DNA of 64,000 nt from an uncultured Gammaproteobacteria bacterium (GCA_964503955.1 CAZDCG010000002.1:205047-269046); one strand, 5' to 3'; positions 6,797 to 25,145 are shown, numbered from the stretch's first letter. A program made the numbers and translations. Notes: generated by a model not told the origin, from the letters alone.

Positions 6797-6895
6797 ATCC
6801 TCCGGAATAGGAGGATTTTTGTGTTGACAGGTGCCACTTGGTGGCATACAATGGGTGTAAAGTGGTTTGAGGTGGGGAATTATGGTGAATTCTAT
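6797..6895 (+). promoter_or_regulatory. mraZ promoter region. A perfect inverted repeat (AATCCTCC-ggaata-GGAGGATT) is followed by a consensus sigma70 promoter (TTGACA, 17-bp spacer, TACAAT) whose spacer contains TGCCAC-ttg-GTGGCA. Downstream are GTGG-type repeats about 10 bp apart that resemble MraZ boxes.
   Basis: TTGACA is at 6824-6829 and TACAAT at 6847-6852. Downstream sequence gggtgtaaagtggtttgaggtggggaattatggtg holds GTG(T/G)G repeats with about 10-bp periodicity. MraZ is known to autoregulate by binding direct GTGGG-like repeats near Pmra. Confidence 0.55.
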
Positions 6896-6961
6896 GGAGG
6901 AACCAACCAATCAATGCCCGCTACATCGGCTTCGGCCGTGGATAACCTCGGAATGTCCCGT

Positions 6962-8812: not shown

Positions 8813-10603
8813 ATGCTCAAGCGATCGTTAAACAAAACACAGCTTTTCGCCAAAATATACACGACTCGGTTGGCTGGTGCTGTGCGTAATTATTTTTCTG
8901 AAGAGCATTTTGACCGCATGTACGCTCTTATCCTCGTTCTCTGCGCGATATCGCTTTTGATCATTGCCCGTTTGTTTACGCTACAGGTGGTTGACCATCC
9001 TTTTTACGCGGCTCTTGCTTCCGATCAGCATGAGATCCAGGCTATTTTACAGGCAAAGCGGGGAGATATCCTGATGCGGGACGCGCAGTCCGATCAGTTG
9101 ATCCCTGTGGCAACGGACAAAGCCTATGTGCAATTGTATTCCGTCCCAAAGCAGATTACGGATCCTGAAAAAACGGCTGAACAGCTTGCTCCTTATGTGA
9201 AACTGACAAAGGAACGGATGATTGAGCTCTTTTCAAAAAAGGATGACCCGTACGAGCCAATTGAGAAAAAGGTCAGCAAAGAGCGTTTTGAGAAGATTAA
9301 GGAATTGAATCTGGCGGGGATTCATGCCGTAGAGGAGATGCATCGCTATTATGTTGATGACAATATCAGCAGCCATGTCATCGGCTTTTTGGGGATGAAA
9401 GATGAAGAACCAACCGGTTTTTACGGCATTGAAGGATATTTCAATAATATCCTCTCCGGTATTCCTGGGTTTTTCTCAAGCGAAAAAGACGTGGCCGGGC
9501 GCTGGATTGTCCTTTCGAACAAAGATGTTATTCAGGCGCAGGATGGAGCGAATATCGTCTTGACCATGGATCATACCGCTCAATATGTCGTTTGTCAGAA
9601 GCTGAACGAAGCGGTTGAGCGGCATGGAGCCGCAGGGGGCGCCGCCATCGTTCTTGAACCGGAAACAGGAAAGATTCTCAGCATGTGTTCTGCCCCGGAT
9701 TTCAACCTGAATTACTACTACGACGTTGAAAGTGCGGCCGTTTACAATAACAAAGCGATTTTTGAAGCCTATGAGCCCGGTTCGGTCTTTAAACCGATTG
9801 TGATGGCGGCGGCGGTGGATTTGGAGTATGTTACTCCCGACACCACCTATGTTGATCCCGGGGCGGTAGAAATCGACGATTTTACCATTCGCAATGCGGA
9901 TGACAAGGTGTATGGCGAGCAGACCATGGTCGGCGTTCTGGAAAATTCCATCAATACGGGAATGATCCATGTAGCCAGGCTGATCGGCCAGGAGCGCTTT
10001 CGCGGTTATCTGGAACGATTCGGATTCGGGGAGCCAACCGGCATCGAATTGCAGACGGAGGTGGCGGGGAATATCAAACCCATTTATAGTCGCGCGGAGA
10101 TTTATCAGGCAACAGCTTCATTCGGCCAGGGGATCACGGTAACGCCTTTGCAGATGGCAGCCGCTTATGGGGCGATCGCCAACGGAGGCAAGCTGATGAA
10201 GCCGTATATTGTCGAAGAAATCCGCCATGCGGACGGGAAAGTTGAAAAACGTTCTCCGCAGCAGGTGCGGCAGGTGCTTTCAACCAGGGCATCGGTGCTG
10301 ATGACCGGCATGCTGACCTCGGTCGTGACGAATGGCCATGCGGGGCTTGCCGATGTTGATGGATACTATGTTGCGGGTAAAACAGGAACCGCCCAGATCG
10401 CGGGACCGGGAGGAAAATACCTTGAAGACGCAACAAATCATTCCTTTGTGGGCTTTGCACCGGCTGATGATCCAAAATTCGTCATCTTCATCCGGCTTGA
10501 AAAGCCGACAAGCGCCCCTTATTCCGCATCAACCGCAGCTCCGCTCTTTTCCGATATCGCGGAATTTCTTCTGAATTATTACGCCATTACTCCTGATTAT
10601 TGA
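8813..10603 (+). CDS. ftsI: Penicillin-binding protein (peptidoglycan D,D-transpeptidase), FtsI/PBP2 class.
   Basis: 596 aa with an N-terminal TM anchor. It has the SxxK motif (SVFKP), the SxN motif (ENSINTG) and KTGT (AGKTGTA). Confidence 0.85.
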   Translation: MLKRSLNKTQLFAKIYTTRLAGAVRNYFSEEHFDRMYALILVLCAISLLIIARLFTLQVVDHPFYAALASDQHEIQAILQAKRGDILMRDAQSDQLIPVATDKAYVQLYSVPKQITDPEKTAEQLAPYVKLTKERMIELFSKKDDPYEPIEKKVSKERFEKIKELNLAGIHAVEEMHRYYVDDNISSHVIGFLGMKDEEPTGFYGIEGYFNNILSGIPGFFSSEKDVAGRWIVLSNKDVIQAQDGANIVLTMDHTAQYVVCQKLNEAVERHGAAGGAAIVLEPETGKILSMCSAPDFNLNYYYDVESAAVYNNKAIFEAYEPGSVFKPIVMAAAVDLEYVTPDTTYVDPGAVEIDDFTIRNADDKVYGEQTMVGVLENSINTGMIHVARLIGQERFRGYLERFGFGEPTGIELQTEVAGNIKPIYSRAEIYQATASFGQGITVTPLQMAAAYGAIANGGKLMKPYIVEEIRHADGKVEKRSPQQVRQVLSTRASVLMTGMLTSVVTNGHAGLADVDGYYVAGKTGTAQIAGPGGKYLEDATNHSFVGFAPADDPKFVIFIRLEKPTSAPYSASTAAPLFSDIAEFLLNYYAITPDY

Positions 10604-11823
10604 CGCTTATGATTGCAAAACGACTTATAGCAAAACAGCAGCCGAAACTTGTTCTTGTTTGCGGGAGTCTTGGTAAAACCTTATTTGCCAAAATCTCCGA
10701 ACAGGTTCTCACAAAGCTTGATCTTTCCGTGGCCTATGCGGAAGTGCAGACCAATCTTCGGTCCGTTGTGGCAGATGTCCACGGAGGAAAATTGAGGGCG
10801 CTCTTCGCTTCCATGGGTTTTGGGCGTTCTTTTGATCTACATCTCTTTGAGTTTCACCCTGATTCTGAAGCACGCAGAGAGCTGCTCGACAGTTATGAGC
10901 GGCGTTATCTGGTCATACCATACATTACGAGGGATGATATTGCCGCGGCAGGCGGTTTGGATAAGTACTTGCAGAGAAATTGCTATTTGAACAAAAAGCG
11001 CGCTAAGGAAACAACGATCATCTTCAATGCGGATATTACCGGGTTAGAGGAGGCTTTGCGCGAAATGGGTGGAGAACGCCTGCATGGTTTCAGTCTTGGT
11101 GATCAGGACGCTGAGCTGACGGCGGTTTCGCCTGAATTCAAGCTTCCTGAAGACGCGGCGATCACCAACGATCATCGCATTCAGGGGATATTGTTCAAAG
11201 CAAAGAATGGCGGAAGCACATTGCCTATGCGCGTTCTGGGTGGGATCGGCGATGCCTATATCTGCGCGCATCTTGCTGTCCTTGAGCTGCTTCGTCTGCT
11301 TGAATTAAATCAGATTGACGGGCTTGCCATTCTCAAAGAAATGCGGGCACTGCCCGGCCGTGCCAAGCTTATTGCCGGCATCAAGAAAACGCTGCTGGTG
11401 GATGATTCCTATGATATGGAAGTGGAAAGCGCGCTTTCGATCTTTGCGGCAGGCGGCACCGTTCCTTTGCAGAAAGGGCATCGCCGCATTGCGGTGGTAG
11501 GCGATTTGCTGCATCAGGGAGAGCAAACAAGCGAGCAACATTTCAGCATTGGCGAACGGCTCGCAAAAGCAGGATATGACGCTGTTGTGGGCATTGGCGA
11601 ACGCGTGCTTGAAACATTGCAAAGCGCGATTGAAAATGGAATGAATGAACAGGCGGTTTTCCATTTCACCGATCCGCATGAAGCGGGGAAATTTATTCAG
11701 CATGAACTCAAACAGGGCGATCTGGTGGTGGTAAAAGGTGCCAAAGAGCAAAAGCTTGAGTCTATTGTCAAAGAGTTGATGGCCTTCCCTTTGCAGGCGA
11801 AAGATGATTTGCTCGTCAGATAA
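10600..11823 (+). CDS. Mur ligase family protein, possibly a reduced MurF/MurE-like enzyme.
   Basis: 407 aa, with an ATGA overlap onto the ftsI stop. The P-loop is VLVCGSLGKT and the Mur-ligase C-terminal motif is LLVDDSYDME. It is shorter than canonical Mur ligases. Confidence 0.5.
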   Translation: MTLMIAKRLIAKQQPKLVLVCGSLGKTLFAKISEQVLTKLDLSVAYAEVQTNLRSVVADVHGGKLRALFASMGFGRSFDLHLFEFHPDSEARRELLDSYERRYLVIPYITRDDIAAAGGLDKYLQRNCYLNKKRAKETTIIFNADITGLEEALREMGGERLHGFSLGDQDAELTAVSPEFKLPEDAAITNDHRIQGILFKAKNGGSTLPMRVLGGIGDAYICAHLAVLELLRLLELNQIDGLAILKEMRALPGRAKLIAGIKKTLLVDDSYDMEVESALSIFAAGGTVPLQKGHRRIAVVGDLLHQGEQTSEQHFSIGERLAKAGYDAVVGIGERVLETLQSAIENGMNEQAVFHFTDPHEAGKFIQHELKQGDLVVVKGAKEQKLESIVKELMAFPLQAKDDLLVR

Positions 11824-11911
11824 GTCTGATACAAACTTCTATAACGCTAAAGCCCCCTGCAAACCTCTCGGTCCGTAGGGGGCTTTCGCTTTGCAGCTCT
11901 CGGCTTGGGAG

Positions 11912-12271
11912 CTAGGCGGCCTGCTTGAGCAGGTCCTTGATGAAGGGCTTCCGCTTGATCTCGTTCTGGCGGGACCACTCGCGGCCGAGCCGGTTGAGGG
12001 CGCGGGCGCAGATCGCGTCGAGCTTGCGGAGGCGCTCGTCCGTGACCTCGTCGGTGCGCCACTTCTTCTTGCGGCAGAGCGCGCGCCACACGATGCCGAT
12101 GAAGTAGTCGGCGGGGTGGATGAAGGGCGACCGGTTGGCCCTGCCCCTGCGAAGGAGCTCCTTGAGCCCCCTCTGCGCGTCCGTCGAGCTCTTGTAGTAG
12201 ATGTCGTAGGTCTCGGGGAACCCCTCGTTGCTCAAGGTGAAGGTTCGAGGGGCGGGGGACGTCGTCATCAT
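11912..12271 (-). CDS. Hypothetical protein in a high-GC cassette with GC3 near 100%. Probably horizontally acquired.
   Basis: 119 aa. A strong SD (AGGAAGGTGA) sits 7 nt upstream of the ATG. Codon third positions are almost all G/C, unlike the neighbouring genes. No family recognised. Confidence 0.5.
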   Translation of the reverse strand: MMTTSPAPRTFTLSNEGFPETYDIYYKSSTDAQRGLKELLRRGRANRSPFIHPADYFIGIVWRALCRKKKWRTDEVTDERLRKLDAICARALNRLGREWSRQNEIKRKPFIKDLLKQAA

Positions 12272-12476
12272 GAAAGATCACCTTCCTTCCGCAAAGCGGA
12301 TTTATCAATATACTGAACGTTGAGAAAAGAGTCAACTGCACAGCTTTTTTGTCGTAAATTTTTGACAACAAAGCTCTGAAAAACAGGCATGGTTTTAGCT
12401 GTTTTGACAGAAATGCTCAAATAACTGGATTGCTACCTTTGCATGCTAAAATTGTCATAGCCCTAATCCAACTCCT

Positions 12477-13478
12477 ATGGCCAAACATGTTTCAATGGTT
12501 TTGACATTAATCCTGGCGGCTTGCCTGATACAACCGGTATCCGCGCAAAGCGAGCTGGTCCTTGATATCGTATTTCCGGTAGACGGTCCGCACAGTTTTC
12601 AAAATGACTTTGATCATCCCCGCGCGGGGCATACGCATGAAGCCACGGATATTCTGGCTGAAAAAATGACGAAGGTTCTCGCCGCGCAGGCAGGGTGCAT
12701 CAGCTATATGCCGATTCCCGAACCTTCATGGGGGTATGCCATCTATATCCGCGGCGTGGACGGCTACTCATATGCGTATTTGCATCTCAATAACGATACG
12801 CCTGGAACGGACGATGGGAGCGGAGGTCCTGAAAACGCGTATGCTCCCGGACTTTCTCGCGGGGACTGCGTGGAGAAGGGGCAGCATATCGGCTGGGTAG
12901 GAGACAGCGGCAATGCCGAAAGTATTGCGTCGCATTTGCATTTTGAAATCGAGGATGAAGAAGGCAACCGCGTCAATCCTTATTTCAGTCTGCTCAATGC
13001 CGTGGGCGCGGCAAGCTACAATCCAGAAGTGGAAAGGGAATTGAGCCAGACCATCAATATGGATTTGCAAATCACGCAAGCGCCGGGACTTACGCATTGC
13101 CAGTCAAATACGTTGATTAAATCGCTTTCCTCCGATTCGGTCTATTATTGCGGAGCGGATGGACGCCGCTATGTATTCCCCAACCAGGCGATCTATTTCA
13201 GCTGGTATAAAAACTTCGACGAGGTGATCACAATCAGCGATGAGCAGCTCGCGGCTATTCCGCTTGGTAAAAATGTGACGTATAAGCCCGGCGTGCGTCT
13301 GGTCAAAATCCAGACCGATCCGAAGGTGTACGCAGTCGGCCATGGGGGATTATTGCGCTGGGTAACTTCTCCGGAAACGGCAGAAAACCTGTATGGGGCA
13401 AATTGGGCAAAGCAGGTGGATGATATTCCCGAAGTATTTTTCCTGGACTACCAGATCGGTGATCCTGTGAATTTTTAG
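12477..13478 (+). CDS. Secreted M23/LytM-family metallopeptidase with an extra C-terminal domain.
   Basis: 333 aa. Signal peptide is MAKHVSMVLTLILAACLIQPVSAQS. The M23 motifs are HxxxD (HTHEATD) and GDSGNAESIASHLHFE. Confidence 0.75.
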   Translation: MAKHVSMVLTLILAACLIQPVSAQSELVLDIVFPVDGPHSFQNDFDHPRAGHTHEATDILAEKMTKVLAAQAGCISYMPIPEPSWGYAIYIRGVDGYSYAYLHLNNDTPGTDDGSGGPENAYAPGLSRGDCVEKGQHIGWVGDSGNAESIASHLHFEIEDEEGNRVNPYFSLLNAVGAASYNPEVERELSQTINMDLQITQAPGLTHCQSNTLIKSLSSDSVYYCGADGRRYVFPNQAIYFSWYKNFDEVITISDEQLAAIPLGKNVTYKPGVRLVKIQTDPKVYAVGHGGLLRWVTSPETAENLYGANWAKQVDDIPEVFFLDYQIGDPVNF

Positions 13479-13592
13479 GCAGGGCCTTAAAAACAAGAAC
13501 GCACCGCAGGGACCGCTTGCCCGCCTCTGGAGGGGGATACGGTCGCCTTGCGGTGCGTGTGGCGGGGGAAGCTGTGAGGCATCCCCGCGCTT

Positions 13593-14126
13593 CTAGTCGA
13601 GATGGCTCAGGCTTTGCCAGCCGGCAAAGGTCGATCTCATCTCGAACGGCTCAAACCAGCTCGGCTCATGACTCCATACCGGAACCATCTTCGAGCCGTA
13701 GTTGATGGCCTGGCCGGTGCCGAGTGTGAGCCGCGGGTGGATTCCGGAGATCTCCTCCTGAATGCTCTCGTAGGCATCCTGGCGAGACTCAAGCTCAGCC
13801 AGCTGCCGGCTGAAGAATTCGCCGGTGCCCTGCGGATCGCAGAAGAACTCCTCGATGAGGAATTCCCTCCACGCGTACTTCGCGAAGATGGCGGTCACAC
13901 CGGACGTGTACAGCTGATCCTCGACACCAAGTGCGTAGATCGCGCTTCGGTAGTCGTGGATCGTGCTTCCGCCTTGGCGGTGAGAACGAAGGATCAGGAT
14001 GCCTTCCTTGTAGTGGATGTCGAGTTCCTCGCTCCGGTGGAATTTCCGGCTCAGGAGCTCTTCGTCGAGAAGCACCTCGCACTTGATGGCGAGAATGTTC
14101 ATGTTCTTCTGCAAGATACCTCCCAT
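13593..14126 (-). CDS. Hypothetical protein in a second high-GC cassette.
   Basis: ORF of 177 aa; the likelier start is at 14102 (MNILAIKCEV...). GC3 is strongly elevated relative to the backbone. No family recognised. Confidence 0.45.
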   Translation of the reverse strand: MGGILQKNMNILAIKCEVLLDEELLSRKFHRSEELDIHYKEGILILRSHRQGGSTIHDYRSAIYALGVEDQLYTSGVTAIFAKYAWREFLIEEFFCDPQGTGEFFSRQLAELESRQDAYESIQEEISGIHPRLTLGTGQAINYGSKMVPVWSHEPSWFEPFEMRSTFAGWQSLSHLD

Positions 14127-14457
14127 TGCTTAAGAGGGATTCACCCACACCGCTCCTCTCAAGCTTGTTGAAAAGAATGGTGAGGGGGGAGGCAGCACCT
14201 CTGATAACCATGATTTTCCACTTCGGATAACCACGCTAATGTATCACGAAAACGAGCTTTTGTCAAGGAAAATGGCAATTTTTCTTGAAAAATAGTCAAG
14301 ATTGTGGTTTACTCTCTTTGCGTAGCACCCGCTGCGCTTTGTTTTATGAAGACCACCCCCTGGCCCCCTCCTTATCAAGGAGTGGGAAGTAAGACCGCCA
14401 GCATTTGTCTGAGAGTCTGGTAAATCTGAAAAGTCTGAAAGGTCTTCGCGACAGCGA

Positions 14458-14532
14458 GGCCCCATCGTCTAGCGGCTAGGACGCCAGGTTCTCATCCTGG
14501 AAACCGGGGTTCGATTCCCCGTGGGGTCACCA
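14458..14532 (+). tRNA. tRNA-Glu (anticodon CTC).
   Basis: Cloverleaf GGCCCCA/TGGGGTC acceptor, anticodon arm CCAGG-TTCTCAT-CCTGG, T-arm CGGGG-TTCGATT-CCCCG, CCA encoded. Confidence 0.85.
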
Positions 14533-14606
14533 AAAAGAAACTAGTTCGAGCACTCGAGAAGGGTCGGTGCCGAATCCAAAAAGGACTACGAAAGTAGTTT
14601 CTTTTT
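14532..14606. repeat. 12-13 bp inverted repeat (AAAAAGAAACTAG ... TAGTTTCTTTTT) immediately 3' of tRNA-Glu, enclosing a CTCGAG-centred palindrome. It could be the tRNA terminator or the island junction (att remnant).
   Basis: The arms are at 14532-14544 and 14595-14606. The loop contains ttcgagcactcgagaa. Confidence 0.5.
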
Positions 14607-14638
14607 GTTGTAGTAAAATACAACAAAGCTTGCTATAC
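14604..14638 (+). promoter_or_regulatory. C-box-like operator (TTGTTGTA-gtaaaa-TACAACAA) overlapping the promoter of the controller gene. An extended -10 (TGcTATACT) follows.
   Basis: A perfect 8-bp inverted repeat at 14604-14625, and TATACT at 14633-14638, sit 10 bp upstream of the C-protein ATG. This matches the known autoregulatory architecture of R-M controller proteins. Confidence 0.5.
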
Positions 14639-14647
14639 TGTTTTCAT

Positions 14648-14860
14648 ATGACTATGCAACAAGATGCCCAAAAATTAGGGGAAAATCTTAAAAGAATACG
14701 GTCAGAGAAAAACATCACACAGAGCAAGCTTGCGGAAATTTTAGATGTCGATCGATCTTTTGTTAGCAATATTGAAAATGGGAAAACTAACCCGACACTC
14801 TCAACTATTACTAAACTTGCAAAGGCGCTTGACGTGCAAATTGAGAAATTGATCAAATAA
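14648..14860 (+). CDS. XRE-family HTH protein, a candidate R-M controller (C) protein.
   Basis: 70 aa from the ATG at 14648 (MTMQQDAQKLGENLKRIRSEKNITQSKLAEILDVDRSFVSNIENGKTNPTLSTITKLAKAL). It ends 3 bp before the methyltransferase start. Confidence 0.7.
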   Translation: MTMQQDAQKLGENLKRIRSEKNITQSKLAEILDVDRSFVSNIENGKTNPTLSTITKLAKALDVQIEKLIK

Positions 14861-14863
14861 CAC

Positions 14864-15847
14864 ATGAAGAAGATTTTATATCAAACAAGTTTAGGAAAAT
14901 ACGTTTTGGGTGATTCCAAAGCTCTTATTGAGAAAGGTGAACTGGATCAATACAAAAATAAGATCCAGCTAGTTTTATTTTCTCCGCCATTTCCTTTGAA
15001 TGCCAAGAAGAAGTATGGGAATAAACTCGGAAAGGAATATAAAAAGTGGTTGTCTGATCTTGCACCTCTATTTGCGAAGTTATTGAAAAAGGACGGTTCT
15101 ATCGTTGTAGAGATGGGAAATGCATGGGAACCTAAGCGTCCAATACAGGCACTACTATCCCTTGAGTCATTGATGGCTTTCGTGAGTAATCCTAAAGCTG
15201 ACCTGCGTTTATGTCAGGAGTTCATTTGCTACAACCCCTCACGCCTCCCGTCGCCAGCTCAATGGGTTACAGTCAATCGGATACGCACGATCGATAGCTA
15301 CACACATGTATGGTGGATGGCAAAATCAGACTTTCCTAAGGCAGACAATCGTCGAGTTCTCAGACCGTACAGCAAGAGCATGCTCCAGCTTCTCAAGCGC
15401 AAGAGTTATAACTCCGGCAAGAGACCATCGCAACACAGCATCAGCGAGAAAGGTTTTCTTACGAATAACAAAGGGAGCATCATGCACAATGTCCTCGAGC
15501 TTGAACAGATGGACGAAGAGAGGGACTTGCGCCTCCCGACAAATATGTTTAGTTTTGCAAACACAAATTCCAATGATTTTTTCTCAACGCAATGCCGTAA
15601 GAAAAACATACCCATACACCCGGCACGAATGCCGACGTCACTTGCAAACTTTTTTATTGAATTTCTGACCGAACCCGGCGACATAGTCTTTGATCCATTT
15701 GCCGGGACAAATACCACCGGCTATTGTGCAGAAAAGTTAAAAAGAAAATGGCTGTCAGTGGAGATCGACAAAGATTATGGTAAGCAGTCGATCATCAGGT
15801 TCAAAGAACCAAAACTTACCAAGAAATTAACTATTAAGAAGATATGA
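14864..15847 (+). CDS. Type II DNA methyltransferase, beta class (N6-adenine or N4-cytosine).
   Basis: 327 aa. Motif IV SPPF (LVLFSPPFP) is near the N-terminus and motif I (FxGxG-like, IVFDPFAGTNTTG) near the C-terminus. This is the circularly permuted beta order, as in M.PvuII and M.RsrI. Confidence 0.8.
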   Translation: MKKILYQTSLGKYVLGDSKALIEKGELDQYKNKIQLVLFSPPFPLNAKKKYGNKLGKEYKKWLSDLAPLFAKLLKKDGSIVVEMGNAWEPKRPIQALLSLESLMAFVSNPKADLRLCQEFICYNPSRLPSPAQWVTVNRIRTIDSYTHVWWMAKSDFPKADNRRVLRPYSKSMLQLLKRKSYNSGKRPSQHSISEKGFLTNNKGSIMHNVLELEQMDEERDLRLPTNMFSFANTNSNDFFSTQCRKKNIPIHPARMPTSLANFFIEFLTEPGDIVFDPFAGTNTTGYCAEKLKRKWLSVEIDKDYGKQSIIRFKEPKLTKKLTIKKI

Positions 15848-17832
15848 GCACAAAATCAGTCATCAAGAATCTAGCTTCCGTTGACATCCTTACTGCGGCA
15901 AAAGACCCCGGTGCTCTTATTGGACGTCCTTTCTATTTGGACTACGAAAAAGCATGCGTCCTTGTACCGGACGCTTGGAAAATGAAAGTCGGTGGGATAC
16001 CGCAAGGTGCATTCCTACTTGCTTTTTATGAGAACGATGAGGGTATCTCTGAAGCTCTGCTTTTGCGAGCACTTGGACCCAAAGGTTTACCTACTGACAG
16101 CGACGTGACTAGTTCAATGATCGAATACTACAAAGACAATCTTAAAACAGCAGACGTTAAAGGTAGCCAGCTTGATGACTTTACTCGTTACCACTTCAGC
16201 TTCTCAGGATTGGAGTGTCGCATCCTTGGGACCTTCTACAAAGATAAGTCTGGGACTGTAGTTTTTGGTGCAGATCTCGAAAACTTCTATAGTGCTCATA
16301 ATTACACTGTCTACAAGCCGTCGGGCAAAGTTCTAGAACAAATTGTGAACTATAAGGACTTGAACGAAGTAGCAGGAGGTGTGAGTGATGTGAAGATCGG
16401 GAATGTTCGATACAGTTCAAGTTTACGTTTTCAGGACGATATCGAAAAGGTACCCGTTTACATCAGCCCTAAAGACTTTATCGGCAAGCGAACCGCTCTC
16501 TTCGGTATGACTCGTACAGGTAAGTCGAACACGGTAAAGAAAATCATTGAAGCAACGGTTGAAATCAGCCAAAAAGCAAAGAGGAAAAATGGCACAGATG
16601 CGAGCACCGAACCTTTTACGAAGTCTGGCTTGACCAAAGAATCAATAGGCCAAATCATCTTCGACATCAACGGAGAATATGCAAATGCAAACCTACAGGA
16701 CGATGGTACGGCGATCTTCGAGATGTATAAAGACGATGTTGTTCGTTACAGCTTACTAGAAAAGCCAGGATTCAAGGTCATGAAGACAAACTTTTTTGAC
16801 GACATTGATGCTGGCTTTGAGTTGCTGTGCTCGCTGTTAGCTATGGACGACGCACGTTTCGTTTCTAACTTTCGCTCCATCGAGCTGACCGTTCCACAAG
16901 AACTGGAAGACGATCCGAGCTTTAAGGTAAGGCATGCGCGACGAGTTGCGGCGTACAAGTGTTGTTTGCACCAAGCTGGCTTTAAGCATAAGGACACAAC
17001 TATCAAATTCTCCGGAGAAGCGACTCTCAATGCTTTAGCAAGTGGAATTGACCCATCAAAGGGAATCTCATACGATCAAGCTGTGAACTGGTTCACAGCA
17101 GTGTGGGAGGCCACCGGAGAGAATGACTTTTTCGAGAATTATAAAAAGAAACATGAGGGTCGAGAATGGGCCGATGAAGACCTTAAAGCCCTGCTCGTGA
17201 TGCTCACACGCAAGCGTAGTCCCGGCTCTGGTAAAGGCGCAGACTGTAGCGGATTTAGGGTGTTTAAGCCTGCACTGAATTTGCATACAGAAAGTGTCGA
17301 CAAGCCCTACGCAATTGAAATTCTAGAGACCTTGAGGCAAGGTAAAATTGTGATCGCTGATCTATCGCAGGGTAATCCAGAAATAATTCAGCTCTACTCG
17401 GAGAAAATCTGCCAGAGAATATTTGCTGATGCGATGAATAATTTCATTGCAGCAAAAAGCAATAATTTTATTCAGATGTACTTCGAAGAAGCTCACAATC
17501 TTTTCCCAAAGCAGACAGATAAAGATCTCAGTAAAATATATAACCGCTTGGCAAAAGAGGGGGCAAAACTTCATCTCGGTATCGTCTACGCTACACAAGA
17601 AGTTAGTTCTATCAGCTCCAACATCCTCAAAAACACCCAGAATTGGTTTATTGCTCACCTTAACAACGAGGATGAGTTAAAGGAACTCAAAAAGTATTAC
17701 GACTTTACTGACTTCACTACCGGGCTTACCCGATTCAGCCCCAACACAGACAAGGGTTTTGTTCGTATGAAAACATACTCTAATCCGTTTGTAGTACCTG
17801 TTCAGATCGACCGATTTACAGCGAAGAAATAG
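15844..17832 (+). CDS. HerA/FtsK-superfamily ATPase (DUF87-like) with an N-terminal HAS-barrel-like region and a large insertion.
   Basis: 662 aa, with an ATGA overlap onto the methyltransferase stop. Walker A is ALFGMTRTGKSNTVKKII. The HerA-type IFDINGEY motif follows. Walker B is FIQMYFEEAHNLFP. The HerA C-terminal signature is LGIVYATQEVSSISSNILKNTQNWFIAHLNNEDE (compare TQRPs...lsQcnT...RL.N..D). Confidence 0.65.
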   Translation: MSTKSVIKNLASVDILTAAKDPGALIGRPFYLDYEKACVLVPDAWKMKVGGIPQGAFLLAFYENDEGISEALLLRALGPKGLPTDSDVTSSMIEYYKDNLKTADVKGSQLDDFTRYHFSFSGLECRILGTFYKDKSGTVVFGADLENFYSAHNYTVYKPSGKVLEQIVNYKDLNEVAGGVSDVKIGNVRYSSSLRFQDDIEKVPVYISPKDFIGKRTALFGMTRTGKSNTVKKIIEATVEISQKAKRKNGTDASTEPFTKSGLTKESIGQIIFDINGEYANANLQDDGTAIFEMYKDDVVRYSLLEKPGFKVMKTNFFDDIDAGFELLCSLLAMDDARFVSNFRSIELTVPQELEDDPSFKVRHARRVAAYKCCLHQAGFKHKDTTIKFSGEATLNALASGIDPSKGISYDQAVNWFTAVWEATGENDFFENYKKKHEGREWADEDLKALLVMLTRKRSPGSGKGADCSGFRVFKPALNLHTESVDKPYAIEILETLRQGKIVIADLSQGNPEIIQLYSEKICQRIFADAMNNFIAAKSNNFIQMYFEEAHNLFPKQTDKDLSKIYNRLAKEGAKLHLGIVYATQEVSSISSNILKNTQNWFIAHLNNEDELKELKKYYDFTDFTTGLTRFSPNTDKGFVRMKTYSNPFVVPVQIDRFTAKK

Positions 17833-17837
17833 CCGCT

Positions 17838-19187
17838 ATGTCTTACTCAAGCCGAGACGGTCGACGACCAAATGAATACGCCAGCAAATCCTCACACGGG
17901 TACATTATTCGTGATCCGGAAGTTTCGGAGTTTTTGGATAAATGCAATCTGCCAAAAACGGCGGAAGAGGTTGACGTGCCGACTAACCTCCAATTCGATC
18001 TGGGGGCACCAGAAAACCCAATAAAACATATTATTGCTATTGATGGTGGTCGATCCGAAGTGTTCGTAAGGAAAGATTTTCCATCGTCCACACTCACGTT
18101 CTTTCAATTTGGCGCACTATTTTTCAAGACGGAAGACCTTGAAGCAATATCAAAAAAGGCGTTCATCGATCCGGAGGACATGGCAAAGCTCAACACTATC
18201 GAAAGGTACAAATTGGCTTTGCCAACAAAAAACATTCTCTTGAAGGATGCGGCCTCTTTCAAAGAATCATTCCGAAAGTCACTGTTTGATTTCTTTATGA
18301 AAGGGTTGAGTGGCGAGACTTTCGCAGAGACACTGCGCTGGCTCATCTTTCAGGAATTTGATACTCCAATTGATGGGTACAATCTTTCTACCTGCCCTAA
18401 TTGTGGCGCAAGTGATATTCTTCTAGGTACAAAAATAAAAAAGACTAACTTTTCGTACCAGTGTCCACACTGCAAGGGGGAGATATTTATTACTGATATT
18501 TTCCGCCTGCATGAGGCTATCGATGACGAGCTTGGTGCCGGTGGAGTCTTGGGGTACGTGAATGTACTGATCGAGCAGATCATTATCGTCTATTTGATTA
18601 AAGCAATATTAGAGACCAAACCTTCGATTCTGAGCGAAACACTTTTTATAAAAGACGGACCACTTGCATTCTTTGGTCAGACAGCAAACATGCAAAAGCC
18701 ATTGAGGAAATTGACCACCTTTCTTTCTGAAAAGCACAATCTTTTTCTTGCTGGTTTAGAGAAAAGCGGACCTTTCGTAGAGCATGCAGATGAAATCGGA
18801 AGAAAATTAATGCCAGGGACTGTCTTGCTTTTGGACAACGCTTATATCTATAAATACATTTTGCCCGGTAAGGTTGATAACACAGCCCCATACGCCCGAA
18901 GTTCTTACTACTCCGGAAAAATGATTTTTAAGTCAACAGACGGGAAAATATATGTAGTAACTATGCCTACCAAGAACGCCGAAGTCGTTTTAGCTCCCAA
19001 GAAAAGTGACTTTCATAATTTGGACGTCATCCTCGCTAACATCCAGAAATTACGTTGTGATATGTACGACAATTCGCTTTTCCCAGTAGCTCTTGCGAAC
19101 AAGCTTGTATCTCTCGCAAATCATCCAAGCTCAGCGATTCTTGAAAAATTTGCAAAGAAAACAATTACATCAAAAACGACTCTTTAG
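17838..19187 (+). CDS. Putative nuclease partner of the HerA-like ATPase. It may be NurA-like (RNase H-like fold) with an inserted zinc ribbon.
   Basis: 449 aa, 5 bp after the HerA-like gene. IIAIDGGRSEV resembles NurA motif I and FIKDGPLAFFG resembles the later D-G-x-L motif. A CPNCG...CPHCKG zinc ribbon is present. The family assignment is tentative. Confidence 0.4.
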   Translation: MSYSSRDGRRPNEYASKSSHGYIIRDPEVSEFLDKCNLPKTAEEVDVPTNLQFDLGAPENPIKHIIAIDGGRSEVFVRKDFPSSTLTFFQFGALFFKTEDLEAISKKAFIDPEDMAKLNTIERYKLALPTKNILLKDAASFKESFRKSLFDFFMKGLSGETFAETLRWLIFQEFDTPIDGYNLSTCPNCGASDILLGTKIKKTNFSYQCPHCKGEIFITDIFRLHEAIDDELGAGGVLGYVNVLIEQIIIVYLIKAILETKPSILSETLFIKDGPLAFFGQTANMQKPLRKLTTFLSEKHNLFLAGLEKSGPFVEHADEIGRKLMPGTVLLLDNAYIYKYILPGKVDNTAPYARSSYYSGKMIFKSTDGKIYVVTMPTKNAEVVLAPKKSDFHNLDVILANIQKLRCDMYDNSLFPVALANKLVSLANHPSSAILEKFAKKTITSKTTL

Positions 19188-19232
19188 TCGTGCTCTGGGA
19201 GCTTTCATTTAGGCTTTTTGTTTCGTAATAAT

Positions 19233-19278
19233 TTTTGACTGAGTTATGTATAGATAACCACAAATTACTGAGTCAAAA
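19233..19278. repeat. Imperfect 12-bp inverted repeat (TTTTGACTGAGT ... ACTGAGTCAAAA) in the convergent gap between the nuclease gene and the recombinase 3' end. It is either a bidirectional terminator or a recombinase site.
   Basis: One mismatch between arms and a 22-bp spacer. It overlaps the recombinase stop codon. Confidence 0.35.
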
Positions 19279-20599
19279 CCTTCCCATTCTTCAAAACTAA
19301 CTCACTACTCACGCACTCCAATACCGATCTTTGCTCTAAAACACTTCCGTCTCGCAGCACAAACTTGGCGTAGTCTTTGAGATCTATCGGTTCAATCTTT
19401 TCGGTCTTTTTCTTGCCCAAGAACATCGCTTGGAGCTTTTTAAACTTTTGAATCTCGCTGTCTAGTTTGGCGGTCAATTTCACCCTATCAAGGCTGATGG
19501 TGTCGACCATCTTTAACAATGCTTCAACTAGTTCTGTTTCGTTGAGAGCTGAATTTTTGCAATGCCTATCTTTGGATTTGGTACATCTGTAGTAGACATG
19601 GCGATTCACTCCTCCTGCTTTTATCTTCTTAAACTTCTCATCCGCTGTAATGCCAGATCCACATTCACCACACGTCATAAGACGTGTAAATGCAAATTCT
19701 TTCCCCTGTGATTTAATCACCTGTGATTTTATTGATTTGCGTGTTTCATCGAACAATTCTTTGGTTATTATTGGCTTGTGTTTCCCGTCATACCAAGCTC
19801 CACTTCCTTGAGGGAATTCAAACCGACCGTAATAAAACGTATTATCAATAATCTTAAAAACATTACCTAGGCTCAAATGAAAACCTCGATGTGTTTTAAA
19901 ATCAAGCTCGTATTTAAGCCATTTATGAACTCGTGAGACACTCCATTTTTCATAAGCGATTTTTTCAAATATCTGTCGTATTATCTCCGCTCGTTCAGGA
20001 TCCAGTTCAACTTCACATTTGGCGGTTCTATCATTCACTTTTCTGTAGCCTGTTGGTGGCTGAGCCGGCCATAACCCCATTTCACAGCGTGTTCTCATAC
20101 CTCGTTTAACATTGATACTCTTGTTATCATTTTCAAGCTTTGCTTGGCTACAAAGAATCATCAGCAAGAATTTATCACTTGGCGAATTGGTGAATGTCTG
20201 GCCAAATGTTTTTATCTGAATCAATTTTTTTTGATCCATTCGATCGACCAGTTTCCCCAGATCGCCAGCGTTTCGGCTTAAACGATCTGGAGCCCAGGTG
20301 ATAACTCCATCAAAAATTCCTGAATCAATATCTTTTACCAGTTCTTCAAAAACAGGTCTTGTCCCAGATTCTTTAGCCGAGTGGGATTCTCTACGAATTT
20401 CAGACACCAAAAGATTTTCTCGTTCCGCAATTTGCGTCATCTCCTTGATTTGAGAATCAATGGATAATGCCTGCTTTTCATCGCCCTCGGTGGATTTACG
20501 AGCGTATAAACAATATTTTAGGTTGGGTTGAGCTTCTGTCATGTATTTATTAATGACAGATACCAATACATCTGCTAAGTCTATGCAGAATAGCCCCAT
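19265..20599 (-). mobile_element. Large serine recombinase (phage/ICE-type integrase).
   Basis: The N-terminal resolvase catalytic domain has YARKSTEGDEKQALSIDSQ (serine nucleophile region) and DRLSRN. The C-terminal recombinase domain has the zinc ribbon CGECGSG...YYRC. The likely true start is at 20542 (MTEAQPNLKYCLYARKS). Confidence 0.8.
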
Positions 20600-20605
20600 T
20601 ATTGC

Positions 20606-21001
20606 CTAATCGTCCCGGTGTTTACGTGGGCGTTTCTTGGTTTTTTCTTCTGAAAAATTAACAAATTCTATTCTATTCACTTTCATATTTGTATTTAGGG
20701 TCTCAAAGAAGTTCTTTGGTCTCGGTTTAACGTATTTCTTCTTATTATTATTCAACCAATATTCGATCGCTCGCATACTTCCTGTTTTAATGTTGTTTAT
20801 CAGCTTGCTCTCAGCCAAGTCGCTTACTGATTCTGCCCCCATATCCAATGCTTCGTCCATTTGTTTCTTAAACTCTGGATCTTCTTTGCGCCAACGATAA
20901 ACAGAGTTTCTGGCTATGCCAACTTTTTCACACGCAGCCGAAACAATTGGGACCAGCTTCAGTTCTTCGATAAATTTTTTAGCTAATCGCGGCTTTTTCA
21001 T
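20606..21001 (-). CDS. Small HTH protein resembling a terminase small subunit or an excisionase-like regulator, co-transcribed with the serine recombinase.
   Basis: 131 aa. VGIARNSVYRWRKEDPEFKK is a typical HTH_23/TerS-like motif. Its stop lies 6 bp before the recombinase start. Confidence 0.45.
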   Translation of the reverse strand: MKKPRLAKKFIEELKLVPIVSAACEKVGIARNSVYRWRKEDPEFKKQMDEALDMGAESVSDLAESKLINNIKTGSMRAIEYWLNNNKKKYVKPRPKNFFETLNTNMKVNRIEFVNFSEEKTKKRPRKHRDD

Positions 21002-22264
21002 CTCCTTTTATGATAGTGGCTTTGCCCCCAGTTAAACGCTCCCAACGTCTGATGATCAAGTCACAGAAAACTGGTTCCAGCTCTATTCCATATACTCGTC
21101 GCTTAAGCTGCTCGCAAGCAATAAGGGTGCTTCCTGAGCCGGAAAAGCTGTCCAAGATTATTTCTCCCGGCTTGGTACAGCGTAATATCGCTTTTTGATG
21201 AAGCTGTGGGGGCTTGGAGGTCGCATGCTCGTAGTCTTGGCCTGCAAGCCTCTTTACACTCCAAATGTCGCTGATTTCTTCCAGCATGGCATTCCCTGTA
21301 GATATATCTTTGTTCAGCACCTCCGTTAAATTAGTCATGTTTTTAGCAATAGAGGGTTTGCCTCTTGTGCCATAAACGCATGGTTCATAACATTTATTGA
21401 AGGCTACGCCAGGGGTAGGATTATGGCCATTTTTAATCCACAAACAAACGCGCTTATTATCAATGCCTAGTTCTTGATAGAGAGTTTGTATCAACCAAAT
21501 ATATTTTTGATCGCACCAGTAGAAGATATGCGCATTCTGCTTACTGACCAAAAGTGCTGTTTCCATGCTTTTTTTAATAAGTTTACGGTAATCAGCCTCA
21601 CTTCTGTTATCTTGAACTGATCCGCCATAGCTTTTTTTACCACCAATGCCAGCGTTGTAATCGATTTGTATGTTATAGACAGGGTCGCTGTATATCATTG
21701 AAGCCGATTTCTCCTCGAATAATTTCTTCACCACAGTAGGATCAGTTGAATCACCGCATATCAGTCTGTGTTCACCCATGATAACCAGATCACCAAGTTG
21801 AGTTAGCGGCTCCTTTATCTTTTTCAACTCCTTTTCGATCTCAAAATCATCGTCGTTAACCTCGGAGTTCTCATTCCAATGGCTTGCCAGCTCCACAGGC
21901 TCGAAACCAACATCAACTAAGGTTTCCATCTCAAAAAGCTTTAGAAGCTCATAATCCCAAGTCCCGTCATTATGGTTGCTCTCTAGCGAAATCTTGTCTT
22001 TTTCCTCTGCGGTAAGAGCTCGATCAGGGACAAGAACTGTAACCTCTGTATCCCTAAATCTTTGAGAGCTTTTTTACGTTGATTTCCAGAAAGAATTACT
22101 CCTTCCGTATCAACTTTCAAAACGTCATGAAACCCTCGCTCACTAATTCTTTCCTTCAATTTGAGAAAAGAAGCTTTACTTATCTTTCTCGGATTGTTTT
22201 TCCAGAGTTTTAGGTCAGAAACCTTGCGTTTCTCTGGACGCCATACGATTGTCGGCTTAGACAT
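20979..22264 (-). pseudogene. ParB-like nuclease domain fused to a DNA methyltransferase (phage-type). It is split by a single frameshift near 22048-22052.
   Basis: The upstream ORF (21983-22264) encodes a ParB-N domain, ...ILSGNQRKKALKDLGI. A -1/+2 frame then continues TEVTVLVPDRALTAEEKDKISLESNHNDGTWDYELL into the methyltransferase ORF (20979-21929). That ORF carries motif IV IYSDPVYN and motif I LDSFSGSGST. An A6 homopolymer lies 20 nt upstream of the shift. Confidence 0.6.
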
Positions 22265-22461
22265 ATTTTTATGTACTTAATTGTTAATAAAAAAATACCC
22301 GCGAATGGTCCAGTTGACTGGACACACTCACGGGTATTTCCCTGCGAGGAGTATTGATTTGTGAGGTAAGTATATATGCACCCGTTGGGAGTGTAAAGGC
22401 CTTGTGCTAGCTCATACATTTGCTTGCTTTTTTGTATAAAATGATTTATACTCTTTATACT

Positions 22462-23082
22462 ATGATAAAAGATCTCAAAGAAAAAGATAAACGGGCGTTT
22501 GCCCTTATCCGCAATAAGCTCATCCATGGCGATCAAAGCCCCACATTACGGGAAATTAATGAGGTTACAGGCGGTAAATCTCCCCGTTCAGCAAGCCTTG
22601 TTGTCAATCGTCTAATAGATGCCGGTCTCATAAAAAAGGTCGGGAGAGATTTTGTTTTAACGGCACCACCTAAGGGAAATTCTATTAGCACCGTTGATGT
22701 TCCTCTCGTAGGAGCTGTTTCATGCGGAATGCCGGTGCTAGCAGAAGAGAACATTCAGGACTATATTCCTGTCTCCACAGCTATGGCGAAAAGTGGTAGC
22801 AAATATTTTCTGCTTCGCGCGATTGGTGATTCAATGAATGATGCTGGAATTAATCCTGGCGACCTTCTCCTTGTTCGACAACAGCCAACCGCTAACGACG
22901 GTGAAAAAGTAGTCGCTCTTATCAACGATGAAGCTACCGTGAAAGTCTTTGAGAAAGCAAAAGACGCCGTAATATTGAAACCAAAATCAAAAAACAAAGA
23001 ACATAAACCTATAATATTAACTGATGATTGCATGATCCAAGGTGTTGTTACTGCGGTACTTCCCGGGGATTTATGTGAGTAA
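22462..23082 (+). CDS. LexA-like repressor (wHTH plus S24 peptidase).
   Basis: 206 aa from the ATG at 22462. The S24 catalytic motifs are AIGDSMNDAGINPGDLLLV and a downstream Lys (KVFEK). The N-terminal domain is LexA-like. Confidence 0.7.
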   Translation: MIKDLKEKDKRAFALIRNKLIHGDQSPTLREINEVTGGKSPRSASLVVNRLIDAGLIKKVGRDFVLTAPPKGNSISTVDVPLVGAVSCGMPVLAEENIQDYIPVSTAMAKSGSKYFLLRAIGDSMNDAGINPGDLLLVRQQPTANDGEKVVALINDEATVKVFEKAKDAVILKPKSKNKEHKPIILTDDCMIQGVVTAVLPGDLCE

Positions 23083-23086
23083 ATAT

Positions 23087-23326
23087 ATGCCAAAGAAAAA
23101 TATACACACTGTGTACAACACAAGTAGAAAAATGTGGGAAACAAAAAAAGAAGGACAAAAGAAGTCCCTGGCAAGCTCTCGAACAAAGGCAACAGCTATG
23201 CAAAAGTCTGTTCGTGAAGCCAAAAAAGCTCAGGCTGAGCATGTCATTCATAATAAAGACGGTAAGATAAGAGATCAGGACAGTTACGGAAAAGACCCAA
23301 ACCCACCAAAAGATAAGAAGCACTAA
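23087..23326 (+). CDS. DUF2188-family small protein.
   Basis: 80 aa. MPKKNIHTVY...HVIHNKDGKIRDQDSYGKDPNPPKD matches the conserved DUF2188 pattern (xVVPxxGGWxV ... VHxxDGRIRxxxSYGxDPxPP). Confidence 0.5.
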   Translation: MPKKNIHTVYNTSRKMWETKKEGQKKSLASSRTKATAMQKSVREAKKAQAEHVIHNKDGKIRDQDSYGKDPNPPKDKKH

Positions 23327-23327
23327 T

Positions 23328-24218
23328 ATGACCTGGGAAGATACTTTTAAATCTTGGGGGGCTGCTCCAAGTACAACGGAGCAACAAAAGATGGAAAATG
23401 CGGAGACGGCCATAAGAAAAGCCATTGAAGCAAATTCTCAATTGTCGTGCATGGATATATCATTCATACCTCAAGGTTCTTATAAATCAAAAACGAATGT
23501 AAGGAACGATAGTGATGTTGATATTTGTGTTTGTTTAAATTCGACTTTTTTTCCCAGATATCCTATTGGTAAGACAAAGGAACATTACGGGAATATAGGT
23601 GGAACTATTACTTTTTCAGCTTTCAAGAACTTGGTTCAAAGAGCGCTCGAAGATTATTTTGGCAAGGAAAGTGTCGATCGCGGTAATAAAGCTTTTGATA
23701 TCCACTCAAACACGTACAGAGTCGATGCCGATGTCGTTCCTGCTTTTGCGTATAGGTATTATTACGATACAGGTTTCAAATGGCACGATCCTGAGGGTAT
23801 TTGCTTCTTAGCTGATGACGGCACAAAGATTATAAACTGGCCACACCAAGTCTACGAAAACTGCAAAAACAAACACACTGTAACAGGACAAAGATATCGC
23901 AAAGTAACAAGAATTTTAAAAAGACTAAGAAACAGGATGCAAGAGGAAGATATTATTGAAGCAAGAGATATTCCCTCATTTTTGATCCAAAGCATGGTGT
24001 GGGGAGCACCTGATGATCATTTCAATAGGGACACCTACTCTGCGGATGTTCGCGCTGTGCTTGCGCATTGTCATAACGAGACATTGCCAAACGGAAATCA
24101 CGCTGATCTGCGAGAAGTCAACAATATTAAACTAATTTACGGAACTCACCAGCCCTGTACAAGAGAAAGGGCTCACGCTTTTTTTGCTAAGTCATGGGAC
24201 TATATTGGATTTAAATAA
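23328..24218 (+). CDS. SMODS-domain nucleotidyltransferase (cGAS/DncV-like, CD-NTase-type), the CBASS-like cyclase.
   Basis: 296 aa. It has the GS...DxD motif (QGSYKSKTNVRNDSDVDICVCL) and a third acidic residue in YRVDADVVPAF. The N-terminal pattern is typical of SMODS. Confidence 0.6.
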   Translation: MTWEDTFKSWGAAPSTTEQQKMENAETAIRKAIEANSQLSCMDISFIPQGSYKSKTNVRNDSDVDICVCLNSTFFPRYPIGKTKEHYGNIGGTITFSAFKNLVQRALEDYFGKESVDRGNKAFDIHSNTYRVDADVVPAFAYRYYYDTGFKWHDPEGICFLADDGTKIINWPHQVYENCKNKHTVTGQRYRKVTRILKRLRNRMQEEDIIEARDIPSFLIQSMVWGAPDDHFNRDTYSADVRAVLAHCHNETLPNGNHADLREVNNIKLIYGTHQPCTRERAHAFFAKSWDYIGFK

Positions 24219-24222
24219 ACAC

Positions 24223-24846: not shown

Positions 24847-25145
24847 AGCACTTAAAAAAGCAAAAGTGACGACAGCCCGTTACTTTTCATCTCTAATCCG
24901 TGTCACTTTTGTCACTATTTATGAGAGAGGATGATAAGTTGAACATGAAAAACTGGACTTATGAAGAGAGAGAAAATCTAATTGGATTCTTTGAATTATT
25001 GCTTGAAGTAGATAGACGAAATAACCCACATCTTTTCACTAAAAATAGCTCTCTCGAGAAGGGTCGAGTAGATAAACAAGGATAGAAGCCCAAAGGCCTT
25101 ACTGGGCAAGGAAATATTTTGGTCGCATCTCGAAAAGGCTCACCA

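Follow-up and report, generated by a model that had tools for sequence, protein, structure and literature searches.

The closest described counterparts of a four-gene operon found in a 64,000-nucleotide stretch of DNA from an uncultured Gammaproteobacteria bacterium (GCA_964503955.1, CAZDCG010000002.1:205047-269046; the whole stretch is referred to here as the window) are a phosphorothioate-based defence system and an integrative element of Thermus. In the first, TdpABC, the ATPase TdpA is reportedly a hexamer that encircles duplex DNA, and the phosphorothioate (PT) mark is said to inhibit both the ATP-driven movement of the motor and the action of the nuclease on self DNA. Tdp has been described as the third phosphorothioate-based restriction-modification (R-M) system, with tdpC alone making the modification (PMC12914056), and TdpABC has also been listed among the PT-based R-M systems (PMC13223576). 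The use of a HerA/NurA-type pair in modification-based defence has been an established concept since 2025. The second counterpart, ICETh1 of Thermus thermophilus, is a tRNA-integrated element with a recombinase, and it carries a co-transcribed operon of Tth111II, the NurA-like TTC1878, TdtA (TTC1879) and the PF01555 methylase TTC1880, with junctions of 4, 2 and -4 bp. DNA donation depends on both TdtA and the NurA-like gene; transfer is reported to change only slightly when the methylase is lost.

In the window, four co-directional open reading frames (ORFs) have been called on the plus strand, at 14567-14860, 14864-15847, 15844-17832 and 17838-19187, with the following assignments:

14648..14860, plus strand: C protein gene, XRE-type helix-turn-helix (HTH), 70 amino acids (aa) from ATG 14648; the longest ORF starts at GTG 14567.
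14864..15847, plus strand: methyltransferase (MTase) gene, beta-class, M.PvuII family, with SPPF as motif IV, predicted N4-cytosine.
15844..17832, plus strand: ATPase gene, 662 aa, HerA/FtsK-family, TdpA-like.
17838..19187, plus strand: nuclease gene, 449 aa, NurA-family (RNase H-like), TdpB-like, with an inserted zinc ribbon.

The C and MTase genes are separated by a gap of 3 bp, the MTase and ATPase genes overlap by 4 bp (ATGA), and the ATPase and nuclease genes lie 5 bp apart. The original prediction, made from the DNA sequence alone, had described this tightly coupled operon, and all of its junctions were found, as was every motif it quoted, in the program translations. Its naming of the genes as C protein, beta-class MTase, HerA-family ATPase and NurA-family nuclease was likewise right by profile, sequence and fold matches. 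We consider it reasonably likely that the operon is a mobile, methylation-based R-M-like cassette, in which an M.PvuII-type enzyme would mark the DNA, a TdpAB-like ATPase-nuclease pair would carry out restriction and the C protein would provide autoregulation. The cassette is probably a widespread methylation-based version of Tdp. The description of this configuration as uncharacterised needs narrowing: no description of an MTase-HerA-NurA system was found in the open-access full-text literature, an earlier mention elsewhere being possible, yet TdpAB is a precedent and the ICETh1 operon has been studied experimentally.

The MTase matches PF01555 (N6_N4_Mtase) in Pfam at 2.5e-28 and the PADLOC model MTase_II at 2.7e-75, and it aligns with M.PvuII (1boo) at 1.3e-59 over the full length, residues 2-320 against 6-301. 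With SPPF close to the N-terminus and FAGTNTTG towards the C-terminal end, the motifs follow the beta-class order, in which the FxGxG-type motif comes last, and orthologues have been named cytosine-N4-specific or 'Modification methylase PvuII' by their source annotations. The enzyme belongs to the M.PvuII family and is predicted to be of the N4-cytosine class. Because its central, presumed target-recognition region is as conserved as the catalytic motifs, the cassette probably keeps one fixed specificity.

The HerA assignment of the ATPase is borne out by the PF01935 (DUF87/HerA) profile, which matches at 7.5e-12 with 46.3 bits against a curated cut-off of 23.2, and all listed homologues carry this domain. 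The protein contains the motifs GMTRTGKS, IFDINGEY, EEAH, ATQ, NTQ and HLNNEDE, with the Walker A segment (G221-T230), the Walker B pair (E548/E549), R568 and Q585 invariant in 35 homologues. Walker A, Walker B, a glutamine sensor-1 and a preceding arginine finger are features of the HerA/FtsK clade (PMC10853773); by position, R568 would be the arginine finger and Q585 the sensor-1 residue. Among PDB sequences the best match is TdpA (8wet_A, 3.7e-18), ahead of DUF4297-HerA, SIR2-HerA and archaeal HerA, and TdpA chains are also the top Foldseek matches (1.8e-14) of an AlphaFold 2 (AF2) model of the protein, the alignment to TdpA and HerA spanning nearly the full length. This model is of moderate quality (predicted local distance difference test, pLDDT, 67) and leaves the highly conserved C-terminal 110 residues unmodelled; it depicts a beta-rich N-terminal region, the part originally described as HAS-barrel-like, with strands between residues 25 and 157, and a helical insert of ~180 residues. 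PADLOC HerA models match as well, at up to 2.6e-21. Judged by these comparisons, the ATPase is a HerA/FtsK-family protein whose closest solved relative is TdpA.

The partner nuclease is more divergent. Against the Pfam NurA profile PF09376 the window protein does not reach an E-value of 0.1 and shows only zinc-ribbon matches, whereas among 37 close homologues (56-90% identical) there are 17 that match it, the best at 2.1e-08, and several homologues have precomputed PF09376 matches or carry NCBI NurA names. In comparisons of the fold, which is RNase H-like and of the NurA type, TdpB is the closest solved relative and archaeal and Deinococcus NurA also match, so the kinship claimed originally stands by fold and by homologues, not by the window protein's own profile score. 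A profile of the nuclease family finds nothing meaningful among PDB sequences, its best E-value being 0.34 to a ribosomal protein, and among solved structures the NurA/TdpB kinship is seen by fold comparison only. A DUF4297 identity receives no Pfam or PADLOC match. The sequence includes the motifs IAIDGG and KDGPLAFF and a CPxC...CPxC zinc ribbon (~residues 181-217), and D69 (of IDGG), D273 (of KDGPL), E308, E226, D229, E231 and E246 are invariant acidic residues in 37 sequences, of which D69, D273 and E308 are putative catalytic residues judged by conservation. The 449-aa protein is, on this evidence, a divergent NurA, and would be expected to act as a nuclease.

The family to which this nuclease belongs is large and well conserved, with more than 2,398 members in a 90%-clustered database; searched exhaustively with a profile, it resolves into 930 clusters at 50% identity. 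Full-length members are nearly all 430-490 aa long, with no larger fusions among the 150 matches listed, and the ATPase and MTase families are similar in size and conservation. A scan of one genome per species, using two peptide patterns and giving a lower bound, found a relative in at least 207 species genomes, the hosts including Chloroflexota, Cyanobacteria, Bacteroidota, Firmicutes, Deinococcota, Planctomycetota, Omnitrophota, the small-genome Patescibacteria and the archaeal Methanosarcinales. This distribution is patchy, covering ~0.1% of species genomes and crossing phyla at 50-60% identity, and degraded copies occur at six loci, as is expected for accessory genes. Double-strand-break end resection by a housekeeping HerA-NurA pair that happens to lie beside an unrelated R-M methylase would account for the fold match to archaeal and Deinococcus NurA, and for the label 'DNA double-strand break repair nuclease NurA' that NCBI gives to several homologues, but it is very improbable in view of the patchiness and the degraded copies, the tight coupling to an MTase, the position of the window copy in a low-GC island beside a recombinase, and the lack of any Mre11/Rad50 partner in the neighbourhoods examined.

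The three larger genes are inherited together. Of the 64 loci whose upstream sequence is long enough for assessment, 55 (86%) encode an orthologous MTase (56-94% identical) immediately before the ATPase gene and in the same direction, the commonest MTase/ATPase junction being a 4-bp overlap and the ATPase-nuclease gap usually 1-5 nt. The arrangement put forward in the original prediction thus recurs as a triad, the fourth gene, C, having a counterpart in just two further loci. Across 47 complete loci the three genes diverge in step, their pairwise distances being correlated (Mantel r 0.77-0.87, p 0.001), and because of this correlation the cassette appears to move as a unit. As a separate observation, identity to the window is uneven in one locus (L007), at 94% for the MTase, 89% for the nuclease and only 74% for the ATPase, a pattern that suggests recombination within the cassette; the corresponding values in another locus (L006) are 90%, 92% and 96%.

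More distant relatives of the ATPase and nuclease, at 25-33% identity, are also linked to MTases, in other gene orders or with other MTase classes:

Deferribacter megaplasmid: MTase, ATPase (split by an insertion sequence, IS), NurA; the MTase is a 404-aa PF01555 enzyme of opposite motif order.
Halorarius plasmid: ATPase, nuclease, MTase, HTH; the MTase is a 425-aa PF01555 enzyme of opposite motif order.
Vibrio prophage: int, ATPase, nuclease, an oppositely oriented MTase, xis; the MTase is D12-class (N6-adenine family).
Salirhabdus (L051): ATPase, nuclease, with MTases downstream; one is D12-class and another is a PF01555 MTase.

A single effector type joined to interchangeable modification enzymes, TdpC among them, is the signature of self/non-self marking. 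The Deferribacter copy (L086, pDF308; 3126-6924) is inactivated, since an IS200/IS605 element (tnpA and tnpB) interrupts its DUF87 ATPase gene. The persistence of the MTase link also bears on the proposal that the pair is an infection-triggered effector of the abortive-infection type, comparable to HerA-SIR2 or HerA-DUF4297 and switched on by a phage cue instead of by missing methylation, with the MTase being a co-travelling orphan or protecting against another nuclease. HerA-DUF4297 and SIR2-HerA complexes are indeed the next-best structural matches of the ATPase, and pairs lacking an adjacent MTase exist, often behind an HTH regulator; the translational coupling of MTase and ATPase genes in most assessable loci, the co-divergence of the MTase with both effectors, and a link that outlasts changes of gene order and of MTase class, unexpected for a passenger gene, leave this proposal with only a slim chance of being correct.

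In the methylation-based R-M reading, the M.PvuII-family enzyme would set N4-methylcytosine at one fixed target sequence in the host DNA, and an ATPase hexamer with a bound nuclease dimer would engage unmarked DNA and degrade it processively, driven by ATP. Methylated DNA would either not be engaged or would stall or release the machine, in analogy with the blocking of TdpAB by phosphorothioate. In this particular copy, the C protein would bind palindromic operators at its own near-leaderless promoter and adjust expression across the operon upon arrival of the island in a new host.

Several results weigh against this reading. Nine of the 64 assessable loci are without an adjacent orthologous MTase, among them one with a diverged MTase copy on the opposite strand (L016), the Salirhabdus locus with its other MTases nearby, and a truncated locus (L083). 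Intact ATPase-nuclease pairs with no MTase in the flanks examined were found in five Nostocales loci and in one Gemmataceae locus, and three cyanobacterial plasmids carry the pair, the one whose annotation was read having it intact with no MTase. It follows that the pair is not always lethal in the absence of a linked MTase, or else that an unlinked MTase protects, and in the MTase-less genomes a host MTase encoded elsewhere may have this role. Common occurrence of such pairs in housekeeping contexts had been named at the outset as a finding that would count against a defence function; few intact MTase-less pairs were found, of which the Gemmataceae one does lie between housekeeping genes. The classification as an R-M-like system is well supported by comparative genomics; the inconstancy of the C gene and the existence of MTase-less pairs qualify it. 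The C gene, moreover, stands ahead of the MTase and the effectors alike and does not form a classical C-R unit, so the layout leaves the classical 'methylate first, restrict later' timing unexplained. No PADLOC model matches the nuclease, for which PADLOC and NCBIfam give zinc-ribbon noise only, and the analogous ICETh1 operon serves DNA donation, with minor reported effects of methylase loss on transfer. Avoidance of 4- and 6-bp palindromes gave no signal in the window, nothing exceeding z = -2.5 in a test of low power, and the count of CAGCTG (29 observed against 36.5 expected) says nothing either way for the same lack of power.

A further difficulty concerns recognition of the mark. No dedicated reader domain for a base methyl group has been identified in the effectors, and it is hard to see how a ring translocase in contact with the DNA backbone could sense a base methyl. 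A bolder reading, which we regard as rather unlikely, is that the MTase, ATPase and nuclease form one holoenzyme, with the MTase serving as target-recognition subunit for both methylation and restriction. Such an assembly would, with the same modest likelihood, work on the principle of the Type I and Type III enzymes, with an FtsK/HerA ring motor and a NurA nuclease in place of a superfamily 2 (SF2) helicase and a PD-(D/E)XK nuclease. The ATGA overlap, the equal divergence rates, the fixed recognition region of the MTase and the lack of an obvious reader domain are compatible with it. If true, it would represent a new mechanistic type of ATP-dependent R-M, distributed across bacteria and archaea.

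The methylation-based R-M reading, with or without a holoenzyme, also has to be set beside the surroundings of the operon, which lies in a low guanine-cytosine (GC) stretch of ~11 kb (14200-25000), where GC falls from 0.55 to 0.39-0.44; the value is 0.50-0.56 over the ~5 kb before the stretch and 0.46-0.50 after it. The neighbouring features are as follows:

14458..14532, plus strand: tRNA-Glu (CTC), by ARAGORN; adjoins the operon and forms the left edge of the low-GC island.
19176..19191, minus strand: terminator-like hairpin from a consensus scan, between the convergent nuclease and recombinase genes.
19265..20599, minus strand: large serine recombinase (Resolvase 5.2e-21, Recombinase 3.6e-11, Zn_ribbon_recom 5e-09), convergent with the operon.
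20606-21001: HTH/Sf6 small-terminase-like gene by Pfam, 131 aa, overlapping the region of a second methylase.
Within 20979-22264, minus strand: second PF01555 methylase, 316 aa, 8e-31, downstream of a 93-aa ORF with no Pfam match.
22420-23082, in the low-GC stretch: LexA/CI-like S24 peptidase.
23328-24846, plus strand: two overlapping ORFs, one of 296 aa with weak SMODS/NTP_transf_2 matches (~4e-4 to 8e-4) and one of 220 aa with a clear Cap15 cyclic-dinucleotide receptor domain (6.2e-22).

The low-GC stretch looks like an integrated element or a prophage remnant, in which the serine recombinase is likely the mobility gene. No second copy of the tRNA-Glu 3' end, as an att site, occurs within the window; the missing repeat fits a serine recombinase, and the right boundary of the island is left undefined. 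Terminator-like sites are no more numerous in the region than in shuffled sequence, and the hairpin at 19176-19191 is thus weak. The 93-aa ORF resembles, by eye, a ParB N-terminal domain, and together with the second methylase may be a split phage-type ParB-methylase, while the two ORFs at 23328-24846 look like a minimal pair akin to the cyclic-oligonucleotide-based antiphage signalling system (CBASS). Outside the island, the GC-rich segment at 11800-14250 (0.53-0.56) holds several long overlapping ORFs on both strands, of which only an M23 peptidase gene (12477-13478) has a Pfam match; a 177-aa ORF at 13593-14126 on the minus strand has none.

Neighbours in other genomes are of a similar kind. 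The triad adjoins Type III Mod/Res genes in three loci (L006, L090 and L093), the related triad of L093 also having a large serine recombinase gene and a LexA-like one next to it; in one locus (L001) it adjoins a UvrD-PD-(D/E)XK protein and a ResIII helicase, and in another (L004) PRTase-CE and ORC/CDC6-like genes. A survey took from every locus the closest ORF on either flank (66 upstream and 72 downstream); the loci are not phylogenetically independent, since they include ~8 Clostridia and ~12 Bacteroidota loci. It found upstream AbiEii in 10 of 66 and ResIII (Type III Res) in 7 of 66, besides HsdM (Type I), GmrSD_N, a C5 methylase, TnsA-like nucleases, integrases and transposases. The downstream neighbours included AAA_15/SMC_N-type ATPases (13/72), PD-(D/E)XK proteins (3/72) and resolvases (2/72). 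Even so, the triad is clearly associated with defence islands and mobile elements.

A role of the pair in DNA transfer has to be considered here. By this account the ATPase and nuclease would be a DNA-processing or export module of an integrative element, as has been proposed for NurA-TdtA in ICETh1 transjugation, and the methylase would serve the element in another way and, for example, mark or protect the transferred DNA. The co-transcribed NurA-like, TdtA and PF01555 genes of ICETh1, on a tRNA-integrated element with a recombinase, provide the model, in which TdtA and the NurA-like gene are needed for donation, and the window operon also adjoins a tRNA gene and a recombinase gene. The triad, however, occurs in many settings that lack recognisable transfer genes, among them archaea, small-genome Patescibacteria and a prophage int-xis slot; its neighbours are mainly defence and toxin-antitoxin genes, its closest solved relatives belong to a defence system, and its gene order and protein sizes differ from those of ICETh1, with no Type IIG enzyme. 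An export function is accordingly judged unlikely.

Some further observations concern genes next to the cassette or to the pair. In twelve Bacteroidota-type loci, a gene of ~730-790 aa lies directly downstream and is coupled to the nuclease gene, by anything from an overlap of a few nt to a 15-nt gap; in one of them (L063) it is followed by genes of ~297 and ~266 aa. Thirteen downstream neighbours have AAA_15, SMC_N or AAA_23 (OLD/ABC-type ATPase) domains. The Bacteroidota gene may belong to an extended operon or to an adjacent second defence system. In seven Clostridia loci, a 307-aa ORF overlaps the start of the MTase gene by ~7 nt; these ORFs are probably among the ten AbiEii nucleotidyltransferase toxin neighbours, and would then belong to an adjacent type IV toxin-antitoxin module. 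On a Tolypothrix plasmid (L089) the MTase-less ATPase-nuclease pair stands behind an XRE-type HTH gene, which is preceded by repeated ATCAAAT-type motifs, possibly operators (4540-4660 of that sequence), and a downstream gene (8912-11362) encodes an 816-aa protein with RNase_T exonuclease and STAND/AAA_16 NTPase domains.

The controller gene in the window deserves separate attention. Its product matches HTH_3 in Pfam (2.6e-17) and the PADLOC model Control_protein (1.4e-13), and its best PDB matches are C.AhdI (6.1e-10) and C.BclI (3e-09), with C.Esp1396I lower in the list; by these matches it is of the true R-M controller type. The start at ATG 14648, giving 70 aa, is most likely the right one, in preference to GTG 14567, because the resulting size fits that of C.AhdI and C.BclI (74 and 77 aa) and of the C-like genes in loci L040 and L028. 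The following elements have been located upstream:

14584..14599, plus strand: imperfect palindrome GACTAC-GAAA-GTAGTT, found by eye, a possible distal C-box.
14604..14627, plus strand: perfect 9-nt inverted repeat, TTTGTTGTA-N6-TACAACAAA, from a repeat search, with arms 100% complementary.
14634..14639, plus strand: TATACT, a -10-like hexamer found by eye, 8 nt before ATG 14648.

The inverted repeat is a putative operator, overlapping the expected -35 position, and a GTAGT-containing motif also occurs upstream of the C-like gene in L028. From ATG 14648 the gene has no Shine-Dalgarno sequence, and scanning for consensus promoters gave no complete sigma-70 match upstream of C, the -10 element being assigned by eye. 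The short distance from TATACT to the ATG and the lack of a Shine-Dalgarno sequence suggest that the C transcript is leaderless or near-leaderless. The XRE controller behind a palindrome, as originally proposed, was upheld in controller type and in its inverted repeat, with the gene start moved from GTG 14567 to ATG 14648. C-like genes ahead of the MTase were found in just two further loci, L040 and L028, and the C gene is therefore an optional regulatory add-on and not a defining part of the system. The original prediction had further placed the HerA-NurA pair in the slot that a restriction endonuclease would fill in a classical C-controlled system. Pfam, PDB and fold comparisons do find no Type II single-polypeptide endonuclease in the operon, the remaining two genes being HerA-like and NurA-like; the resemblance ends with the C gene, which lies upstream of the MTase too and does not form a C-R unit.

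Should the methylation-based R-M reading be true, HerA/NurA motor-nucleases would constitute a general restriction module that has been joined to several DNA marks: N4-methylcytosine in this cassette, those of different methylase classes in its distant relatives, and the phosphorothioate of Tdp. The R-M repertoire would gain a widespread and unusually well-conserved cassette spanning both prokaryotic domains, with the sharp mechanistic question of how a ring translocase tells a base methyl group. PADLOC v2 models do not match the cassette as a system, so such loci are probably missed in defence counts. It would then also become possible to test a new interpretation of the NurA-TdtA-methylase operon of Thermus ICETh1.

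When the locus is compared with the known systems, the ICETh1 operon, likened here by architecture only, shares the coupling of NurA-like, HerA-like and PF01555 methylase genes on an integrative element. It differs in its order of nuclease, ATPase and methylase and in its extra Type IIG enzyme, there being no gene of Type IIG size in the window operon; its nuclease and ATPase are also smaller (377 and 568 aa) and its methylase larger (410 aa). PvuII-type C-controlled R-M systems resemble the window operon in having an M.PvuII-family MTase and a C protein, here of the C.AhdI/C.BclI type with its upstream palindrome as a putative operator. In the window, however, an ATPase-nuclease pair replaces the Type II endonuclease, and C lies upstream of the MTase in the same direction, not in a C-R unit, and is absent from most cassettes. 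The HerA-NurA pairs of archaeal and Deinococcus end resection belong to the same two families, with the same folds and adjacent genes, whereas the pair described here is mobile, defence-linked and coupled to an MTase, and its similarity to them is below that to TdpAB.

HerA-DUF4297 and SIR2-HerA (Nezha/Gao_Her) likewise combine a HerA-family ATPase with an effector, and their PADLOC HerA models and PDB structures match the ATPase. The effector here is NurA-like, with no Pfam or PADLOC match to SIR2 or DUF4297, and the linked modification enzyme points to self/non-self marking over abortive infection. MADS (mad1-8) was considered as well and rejected, the only match in PADLOC being a weak and partial one of the ATPase to mad8 (1.4e-09); the other three proteins have no mad matches among those listed, which for C and the MTase are the best 25 families.

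TdpABC remains the nearest comparison. In both systems a DNA-modification enzyme is encoded alongside a HerA-like ATPase and a NurA-like nuclease, and TdpA and TdpB (cryo-EM structures 8wet and 8wfd; An et al., Nat Chem Biol 2025, doi 10.1038/s41589-024-01832-w) are the closest solved relatives, TdpA by sequence and fold and TdpB by fold. The modification enzyme, on the other hand, is an M.PvuII-type base methyltransferase and not a TdpC-type phosphorothioation enzyme, and general domain scans, in which no TdpC profile was used, showed no sulfur-transfer or DndC-like domain among the operon and neighbour genes. The similarity is remote: identity is ~12-18% when the structures are aligned, and by sequence a good alignment of the ATPase is confined to its C-terminal ~160 residues; the nuclease is ~90 residues longer and contains the zinc ribbon. 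Tdp belongs to thermophiles, whereas the hosts of the present cassette are mostly mesophilic and come from many phyla, and the sensing of a modified backbone is not simply transferable to a base methyl group. The pairing of HerA/NurA with DNA modification being already known from TdpAB and ICETh1, what is new here is a probable methylation-coupled member of the HerA/NurA-type restriction class.

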